Origin: a virus
Lineage: Duplodnaviria > Heunggongvirae > Uroviricota > Caudoviricetes
Length of the DNA: 4,505 bases
Virus record (IMG/VR): IMGVR_UViG_2778261503_000007
Strand: one strand, 5' to 3'
The translations under genes were made by a program, and so were the position numbers. Below the pieces are notes generated by a model. It had not been told where the DNA came from. It saw only the letters and a program-made list of their open reading frames with translations, and ran no database searches. This document shows positions 1,427 to 1,534 of the stretch, piece by piece; the first letter of the stretch is position 1, and every line of letters begins with the position of its first letter.

Positions 1427-1454
1427 CAATAAAAAACCCGCTCGGCGGCGGGTT
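1427..1454 (-). terminator. rho-independent terminator (tR'-like) downstream of PR'
   Basis: On the minus strand, a GC-rich hairpin AACCCGC / GCGGGTT (plus 1435-1441 pairing with 1448-1454, short loop) is followed immediately by TTTTATTG (plus 1427-1434). It is roughly 65 nt downstream of the predicted PR' start and about 35 nt upstream of the first tRNA. Confidence 0.6.
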
Positions 1455-1486
1455 GTAGAAACTCTTCTAACGTCAGGCATAAAAAG

Positions 1487-1529
1487 CCCATCGTTATGAC
1501 GAATTTACCACAGATTCCGGAAAAATCAA
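1487..1529 (-). promoter_or_regulatory. late promoter PR' with qut-like initial transcribed region
   Basis: Minus strand reads -35 TTGATT (plus 1524-1529), 16-nt spacer, -10 TAAATT (plus 1502-1507), then cgtcataACGATGGG (plus 1487-1501). The TAAATT ... ACGATGGG arrangement closely resembles the lambda PR' -10 and its pause-inducing initial transcribed sequence. It lies directly after the Q stop codon. Confidence 0.6.
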
Positions 1530-1534
1530 CCTTG

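Follow-up and report, generated by a model that had tools for sequence, protein, structure and literature searches.

A probable lambda-type PR'/qut/tR' module and its predicted short leader RNA in a Qin-like Escherichia coli prophage

Late-regulatory region downstream of the Q gene

The DNA considered here is a stretch of 4,505 nucleotides (nt) from a virus of the Caudoviricetes (IMG/VR record IMGVR_UViG_2778261503_000007; the whole stretch is referred to as the window), which by gene content and nucleotide matches represents the minus-strand late-regulatory region of a lambdoid prophage. Positions 78-4428 are 100% identical to prophages of extraintestinal pathogenic Escherichia coli (e.g., CFT073, ZH063 and clone D i14), and the neighbourhood in ZH063 is Qin-like, with ydfA/B/C, hokD, DUF968, RusA, an "antitermination protein", three tRNAs, holin, lysozyme and terminase in this order. 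The element in question lies between the gene of the antiterminator Q and the tRNA genes, and combines a predicted late promoter (PR'), a candidate Q-binding element (qut) and an intrinsic terminator (tR'). All features are located on the minus strand unless stated otherwise.

The gene upstream of this element (1535-2356) encodes a protein of 273 amino acids (aa) and is identified as a lambda-family Q by its match to Pfam PF03589 (Antiterm, "Antitermination protein Q"; E = 8.5e-55). Compared to lambda Q, with which it shares only 30% identity over the full length, the window Q carries an extra zinc module. This DnaJ-like CXXCXGXG module, for which the Pfam match (DnaJ_CXXCXGXG) falls below the cut-off, is inserted in the window Q, absent from lambda Q and common to the aligned related Qs (250-277 aa).

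The stop codon of Q (TAA, 1537-1535) is followed after 5 nt by the -35 hexamer of the predicted PR' (TTGATT, 1529-1524), which was read from the sequence and is invariant in 30 unique loci gathered by their Q protein, so that the promoter adjoins the Q gene on the same strand. The 16-nt spacer TTTCCGGAATCTGTGG (1523-1508), representing the candidate qut, leads into an extended -10 element of TGg and TAAATT (TG at 1510-1509, TAAATT at 1507-1502), the hexamer of which is that of lambda PR' and is kept in relatives. TTGATT, 16 nt and TGgTAAATT together place a -35 and a -10 at a working spacing for sigma70, and promoter activity is predicted. Behind a 6-nt discriminator (CGTCAT, 1501-1496), transcription would start at A1495 with the initial transcribed bases AACGATGGG (1495-1487), which comprise a -10-like, pause-inducing hexamer (AACGAT, +1 to +6) and GGG (+7 to +9). 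By analogy with lambda PR', a sigma70-dependent pause is predicted at +16/+17 (1479-1480), and U17-G18 together with G8 of the leader agree with the published elemental pause consensus.

An earlier note on this DNA had described the -10 and the initial transcribed sequence as close mirrors of lambda PR', and every element indeed lies where it had been placed on the minus strand. The lambda promoter reads TTGACT-17 nt-TAAATT-TGACTC-AACGATGGG, meaning that the -10, the 6-nt spacing and bases +1 to +9 are the same in both, and the pause element has the same identity and distance. The spacer, however, is a different one (17 nt in lambda versus 16 nt in the window), and the window promoter combines a weaker -35 with an extended -10. 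The window contains the composite TAAATT-N6-AACGATGGG a single time, while shuffled sequences yield 0.01 matches even at 2 mismatches. A 45-aa open reading frame (ORF) at 1354-1491, whose ATG lies inside AACGATGGG, was rejected as coding, as it crosses the terminator into a tRNA and has no ribosome-binding site.

The terminator tR' spans 1454-1428. Its stem-loop (1454-1435, AACCCGC-CGCCGA-GCGGGTT) has a stem of 7 pairs, 5 of them G-C, in the terminator scan (-11.2 kcal/mol, z = -3.15) and is accompanied by a U-tract (1436-1431) and the tail TTTTATTG (1434-1427), with an expected 3' end at about 1429. Hairpin and U-tract form an intrinsic terminator that precedes the late genes and lies about 80 nt past the stop codon of Q. 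The three tRNA genes start 37 nt past it (first tRNA at 1391), and in the matching genome the holin gene follows about 2.4 kb downstream. That PR'/qut is followed about 65 nt later by tR', before the tRNAs, and would give a short terminated RNA was the central claim of the earlier note, and comparison with related loci strongly supports it. Promoter, start and terminator elements predict a terminated PR' leader RNA of ~67 nt (A1495 to about 1429, i.e., 1429-1495), which fits the interval of 1428-1495 that had been proposed. The abundance of this RNA is something we infer; a start site or RNA level for the window locus was not found in published data.

Within the leader, a variable linker (AGAAGAGUUUCUAC, +28 to +41, 1455-1468) precedes the terminator. 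It possibly forms a weak local hairpin, differs even among relatives with Qs that are at least 88% identical, and therefore holds no conserved seed. No curated family in Rfam covers the leader RNA. Matches to the Rfam models of the Trp, Leu and Phe leaders, isrK, rseX and STnc130 were rejected, as all are well under threshold and rest on the terminator.

The first cargo 3' of tR' are the three tRNA genes (1142-1391; one with a CAT anticodon that is tRNA-Ile in RefSeq, Arg-TCG and Arg-TCT), as detected by ARAGORN, Rfam and RefSeq. Together with 40 nt upstream, the cluster is 92% identical over 300 nt to ileZ-argN-argO of phage 933W. A putative tRNA promoter in the window (TTGCGG at 1429-1424, 17 nt, TATTAT at 1406-1401) is homologous to the one annotated in 933W as "pT; putative tRNA promoter". 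Because the 40 nt upstream are homologous to 933W pT, the tRNAs probably have their own promoter, independent of PR' and Q. Read-through into the tRNAs in the presence of Q, as anticipated in the earlier note, is plausible in itself, but the tRNAs probably do not depend on it. The lysogen may express them even when Q is absent, and Q-dependent read-through would then raise this expression rather than bring it about.

Conservation of the module and its homologue in E. coli K-12

About 200 related phage loci were compared, gathered by three anchors: the leader, the spacer motif and the Q protein. A scan of viral contigs for AACGATGGGCTTTNTATG (leader anchor) gave 120 loci with 39 distinct leaders, the spacer-motif anchor gave further leader versions behind the same promoter type, and the Q-anchored set is unbiased as to the DNA 3' of Q. 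All 39 leader variants end in a GC hairpin and a T-run at 51-71 nt from +1, most often at 65 nt, and the sequences of the terminator hairpins vary among relatives (e.g., CCCGC/GCGGG or CCUCGC/GCGGGG). In the Q-anchored loci, -35, spacer, -10 and leader are conserved while the bases from the stop codon to the -35 are free to vary, and the stretch from -10 to +1 differs in sequence between loci yet is 6 nt long in all of them. The similarity ends directly past the U-tract, after which some of these loci carry the tRNA cluster and others unrelated cargo.

The pause hexamer itself occurs as AACGAT, AATGAT, AATAAT, AACAAT, AACTAT, AAAGAT and TACGAT. A2 and T6, the positions most important for the recognition of a -10 element by sigma70, are constant among these variants, and positions 3 and 4 vary. 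Within the CFT073-like lineage (18 unique sequences of 170 nt), the polymorphism that recurs is concentrated at +3 and +4 (1492-1493) and at +11 (1485), with three alleles each. A hexamer other than AACGAT was present in 23 of 53 loci. This concentration may reflect a tuning of the pause or, alternatively, mutation hot spots.

At least four promoter/spacer types are found upstream of related leaders, and in the leader-anchored loci the -10 always lies exactly 6 nt before AACGAT. The length of Q differs by spacer type, with 260-277 aa in type A (including the window), 250 aa in type B (including SfV and K-12 Qin), 276 aa in type C and 269 aa in type D. The Qs of type A are 57-58% identical to the window Q, yet have the spacer motif TTTCCnGAATCTGTG in common, and in types B to E, where Q is ~40% identical to the window Q, the spacers carry other motifs. 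It is the C-terminal part of Q that changes in step with the spacer type. A Q-binding element located between -35 and -10 would give such co-variation, and the binding of Q at this position is predicted from it.

Such modules are widespread. A 169-nt interval of the window has matches in 2629 of the 5426 complete E. coli genomes, of which 1228 match over 80% or more of the interval. Further matches lie in phages mEp460 and SfV (with an annotated terminator in SfV), in Salmonella phage F1055 and in a number of Shiga toxin 2c (Stx2c)-converting phages. One of the latter, Stx2c_PV98-693, has a complete B-type set of Q, promoter, leader and terminator, which has tRNAs ~2.3 kb downstream of it and presumably also lies upstream of stx2c. 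A scan of 596 Gb of genome contigs with a 16-base pattern was not used as evidence, as the pattern is too short and mostly gave chance matches in unrelated phyla, with only few enterobacterial ones (Enterobacter, Brenneria) that agree with the host range to be expected.

K-12 Qin, SfV, mEp460 and the Stx2c phages share with the window the leader family (AACGATGGGCTTTgTATG ... GTT ... terminator) and its location after a lambda-family Q. They differ from it by the B-type spacer (TTGCAT-TTTTCAAAAAATATGGA-TAAGAT or TAAAAT), by a 250-aa Q that is ~40% identical to that of the window, and by linkers, terminator loops and cargo of their own. In K-12 Qin, the B-type copy (TTTGCAT...TAAAAT-TTTTTC-AACGATGGGCTTTGTATACCCGACGTT...AAAACCCGCTGATGAGCGGGTTTTGTGC) is located 3' of ydfT/quuQ, and no RNA gene is annotated there (MG1655 1642356-1642422). 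A 3' end determined by Term-seq at 1642356(-) is, however, listed as "orphan" in the curated table of Adams et al. 2021 (PMC7815308, supplementary file 1). The sequence flanking this 3' end is exactly the K-12 Qin terminator, and the coordinate is entered three times in a file that spans three growth conditions. The 3' end lies 8 nt past the terminator stem. Its distance to 1642422, the inferred start, is 67 nt, and the K-12 Qin copy is an unannotated K-12 transcript of about this length. None of the Pas small RNAs of enteropathogenic E. coli (EPEC) matches the leader of the window in position.

The leader RNA and the proposed late switch

The full leader is predicted to fold into three elements, namely a hairpin at the 5' end, a weak one in the middle and the terminator (-20.6 kcal/mol, z = -2.3). 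In the 5'-terminal hairpin (1469-1495; -8.5 kcal/mol, z = -2.9), nt 1-4 (AACG) pair with nt 24-27 (CGUU) and nt 7-10 (GGGC) with nt 18-21 (GCCU), and the first 27 nt of the lambda leader fold with similar values (-8.7 kcal/mol, z = -3.6). Across the 38 distinct leaders in the register of the window, standard pairs occupy 95% of cells, compared to 27-44% after a shift of the 3' arm by 1-3 columns. Two-sided compensatory changes were not found among these 38 leaders, all changes being one-sided (G-C to G-U, U-A to U-G), and the shuffle control for this hairpin is uninformative, since the function as a pause signal holds the 5' arm constant. A better argument than pair counts is the shifting register of the CGTT partner. 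Its first base is +24 in the leader type of the window, +25 in one relative that is more distant, and +20 both in a second leader type (AACGATGGGTTAYTGCCTTCGTT) and in lambda. In addition, when the first 30 nt are folded, the minimum-energy structure has nt 2-4 paired for 38 of 49 distinct leaders, versus 18.5% of shuffles. The 5'-terminal hairpin is therefore considered a real conserved feature of lambda-type PR' leaders. It may contribute to the stability of the leader or of the late transcript, or act after escape from the pause.

Three known systems are close to that of the window, one of them being phage lambda with its terminated PR' transcript, the 6S RNA. Lambda has a Q of the same Pfam family, a promoter directly after Q and an intrinsic terminator before the late genes, and its leader has a predicted 5'-proximal hairpin as well. 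The leader of the window is nevertheless much shorter (~67 nt versus ~194 nt in lambda), and the two have no similarity past about +9 except for the CGTT hairpin partner.

The second is that of StxS in Shiga toxin (Stx) phages. StxS is transcribed from the constitutive late promoter to tR' downstream of Q in Stx1 and Stx2a phages (Sy, Lan and Tree 2020, PMC7547250). It occurs in phages with a 144-aa Q, and RNase E cuts the 258-nt PR'-tR' transcript to 74 nt. Binding to Hfq, activation of rpoS and repression of stx1B have been demonstrated for it, and Sy et al. suggest trans-acting roles for other PR' RNAs too, while Stx2c phages are without StxS according to the same authors (PMC7547250). The RNA of the window resembles StxS in its position after Q and, with respect to 933W, in the ileZ-argN-argO tRNAs further downstream. 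933W is annotated with the same layout of Q, PR', terminator and tRNA. In a blastn comparison, however, the window matches 933W only in a 24-nt terminator core (the first terminator after PR' in 933W) and in the pT/tRNA region. Homology with StxS was rejected, as the StxS region of 933W gives no blastn match and the type of Q differs (144 aa versus the 273-aa lambda-family Q). The designation "6S/StxS-like" in the earlier note thus applies to StxS by position only, since a ~67-nt unprocessed RNA would also differ from a 258-nt transcript that is processed to 74 nt. As a separate observation, the first terminator after PR' in 933W shares the hairpin GAACCCGCCGATGCGCGGGTTTTTTTGTACC with some members of the leader family of the window, while promoter and Q differ; this suggests, from sequence comparison, that terminator modules could be exchanged between late regions.

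A third short RNA, IsrK of Gifsy-1 in Salmonella, is ~77 nt long and located directly 3' of a Q-like gene, where it ends at an intrinsic terminator with partial read-through and base-pairs with the mRNA that this read-through gives (Hershko-Shalev et al. 2016, PMC4825925). The likeness to the RNA of the window lies in a short terminated RNA directly after a Q-like antiterminator gene. In contrast, the Gifsy-1 Q is of the phage-82 type and IsrK lacks the AACGATGGG start. With unrelated sequences and scores of the Rfam isrK model (RF01394) far under its threshold of 50 (18.0 bits in the window, 16.6 bits in the K-12 homologue), homology with IsrK was rejected as well.

The interval between Q and the tRNAs is very probably the canonical PR'/qut/tR' switch known from lambda, here in a Qin-like lambdoid prophage, and would release the ~67-nt leader in the lysogenic state. 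Observed in this analysis are the sequence elements and how they are conserved, the correspondence of spacer types with Q types, and the mapped 3' end in K-12. In the proposed mechanism, RNA polymerase would start at A1495, sigma70 would re-bind the -10-like AACGAT on the non-template strand, and polymerase would be held at about +16/+17. Without Q, polymerase would escape, terminate at the hairpin and U-tract, and release the ~67-nt leader with its 5'-terminal hairpin. After induction, the 273-aa Q would bind the spacer between -35 and -10, join the paused complex and confer resistance to the terminator. Transcription would then pass tR' and, by way of the tRNAs and accessory genes, reach the genes for lysis and morphogenesis. 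For constitutive transcription, the pause at about +16 and Q-dependent read-through, the Term-seq 3' end in K-12 is at most indirect evidence. The short RNA itself would most likely be a by-product of this switch.

Several points weigh against this account. PR' in the window matches only 8 of 12 consensus promoter positions, which is why a generic promoter scan did not list it, but the TGn extended -10 makes up for the weak match. No start site for the K-12 homologue appears in the Cappable-seq, SMRT-Cappable-seq or sigma70-pause tables. The binding of Q to the spacer is deduced from co-variation, and the prophage may be defective in some hosts, where Q-dependent read-through possibly never occurs. 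One could read the hairpin instead as a gene-end terminator of early rightward transcription after Q, with the promoter and pause sequences being chance or relics and no separate RNA being made. A hairpin ~80 nt past the Q stop codon, a promoter below the threshold of the generic scan and the lack of a start site in the published tables examined would all suit such a terminator. Yet -35, spacer, -10 and hexamer are kept at exact spacing amid variable neighbours, chance does not explain the composite motif, the functional positions agree exactly with those of lambda PR' and the spacer type tracks the Q type, which together make a mere gene-end terminator very improbable. It is scarcely credible that the element is instead the promoter and attenuator leader of a tRNA operon rather than a switch for phage late genes. 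While three tRNAs do lie directly downstream and Rfam leader models give weak matches (Trp_leader at 25.4 bits versus 41 in the window; Leu and Trp leaders on the SfV homologue), these matches are all below gathering scores and align mainly to the terminator. Moreover, the leader holds no Shine-Dalgarno sequence, codon run or leader peptide with a ribosome-binding site, the tRNAs carry a putative pT-like promoter of their own, and the module precedes cargo without tRNAs in many relatives, as it does in K-12, SfV and Stx2c phages.

A more substantial alternative concerns the RNA rather than the switch. The ~67-nt RNA could be a regulatory small RNA in its own right. It would then act either in trans on mRNAs of the host, like StxS, or on its own read-through transcript, like IsrK, and the switch would be only a part of its function. 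StxS (PMC7547250) and IsrK (PMC4825925) are indeed two known regulators made downstream of Q genes. The leader family is very widespread, its 5' hairpin is kept across leader types, and the K-12 homologue has a stable 3' end in Term-seq tables. The terminator of the leader also has a tail of 6 U, as is usual for Hfq binding. Against this stand the lack of similarity to the StxS region of 933W and an isrK score of 18 bits versus 50, as well as the distribution of conservation along the leader. Seeds are usually the best-conserved part of a small RNA, but +28 to +41, the sole stretch outside the 5' hairpin and the terminator, varies among close relatives, and the conserved 5' part is already accounted for as a pause signal in the DNA. 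With regard to targets, the best duplex between nt 1-41 of the leader and the rpoS leader (-26.9 kcal/mol) is at the level of shuffled sequences in what is a crude test (mean of -26.2 kcal/mol, 36% of shuffles as good), and it lies at -387, off the activating site at about -127 that is given by the DsrA control. Nor was there an inverted repeat of at least 10 nt between 1455-1495 and the 1.4 kb downstream, as self-targeting would require complementarity to the downstream transcript. The prophage small RNAs that are named in the E. coli literature examined likewise do not include the leader. The trans-acting role raised in the earlier note gains no support from these comparisons, with no conserved single-stranded seed, rpoS pairing no better than random and no complementarity to the downstream transcript, and a regulatory small RNA as the main function is rather improbable. 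There is some, if small, chance that the family of ~65-nt PR' leaders is a functional RNA in a broader sense, in which the hairpin stabilises the late transcript or aids Q loading or pause escape, or the free leader acts in trans, and in which the polymorphism at +3, +4 and +11 possibly reflects selection on the pause.

As a lambda-type switch, the module is textbook lambdoid regulation and not a new mechanism, although its leader family is absent from Rfam and unannotated in K-12. Mildly unexpected points are limited to the conserved 5' hairpin and to the concentration of polymorphism in the pause hexamer. The module would set the timing of the late genes and of the accessory genes that precede them in a very common type of E. 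coli prophage, and its B-type version presumably precedes stx2c in Stx2c-converting phages, which themselves are without StxS. Knowing the exact promoter, pause and terminator permits the "orphan" 3' end of K-12 to be annotated correctly and Q-dependent cargo to be predicted, to which the tRNAs probably do not belong. The exact elements also allow for clean mutants, by which it could be tested whether short PR' RNAs besides StxS and IsrK have gained functions.

Neighbouring genes and other features of the window

Upstream of Q, the window contains the genes of RusA (2371-2727) and of a DUF968 protein (2740-3789). Downstream of the tRNAs, a full-length copy of the prophage small RNA STnc100 is located at 256-445 (Rfam RF02076, 132 bits versus a threshold of 47). 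STnc100 has been linked to the PasD small RNAs of EPEC in a 2026 preprint, and the region of this copy is 71% similar to 933W DNA just 3' of stxB2. Two ORFs lie between the tRNAs and STnc100, one of 117 aa (678-1031) that has no Pfam match and is unannotated in RefSeq ZH063, and one of 43 aa that belongs to DUF3927 (511-642). On the opposite strand, the end of an iraM-like anti-adapter gene (1-230, plus) runs off the left edge of the window.

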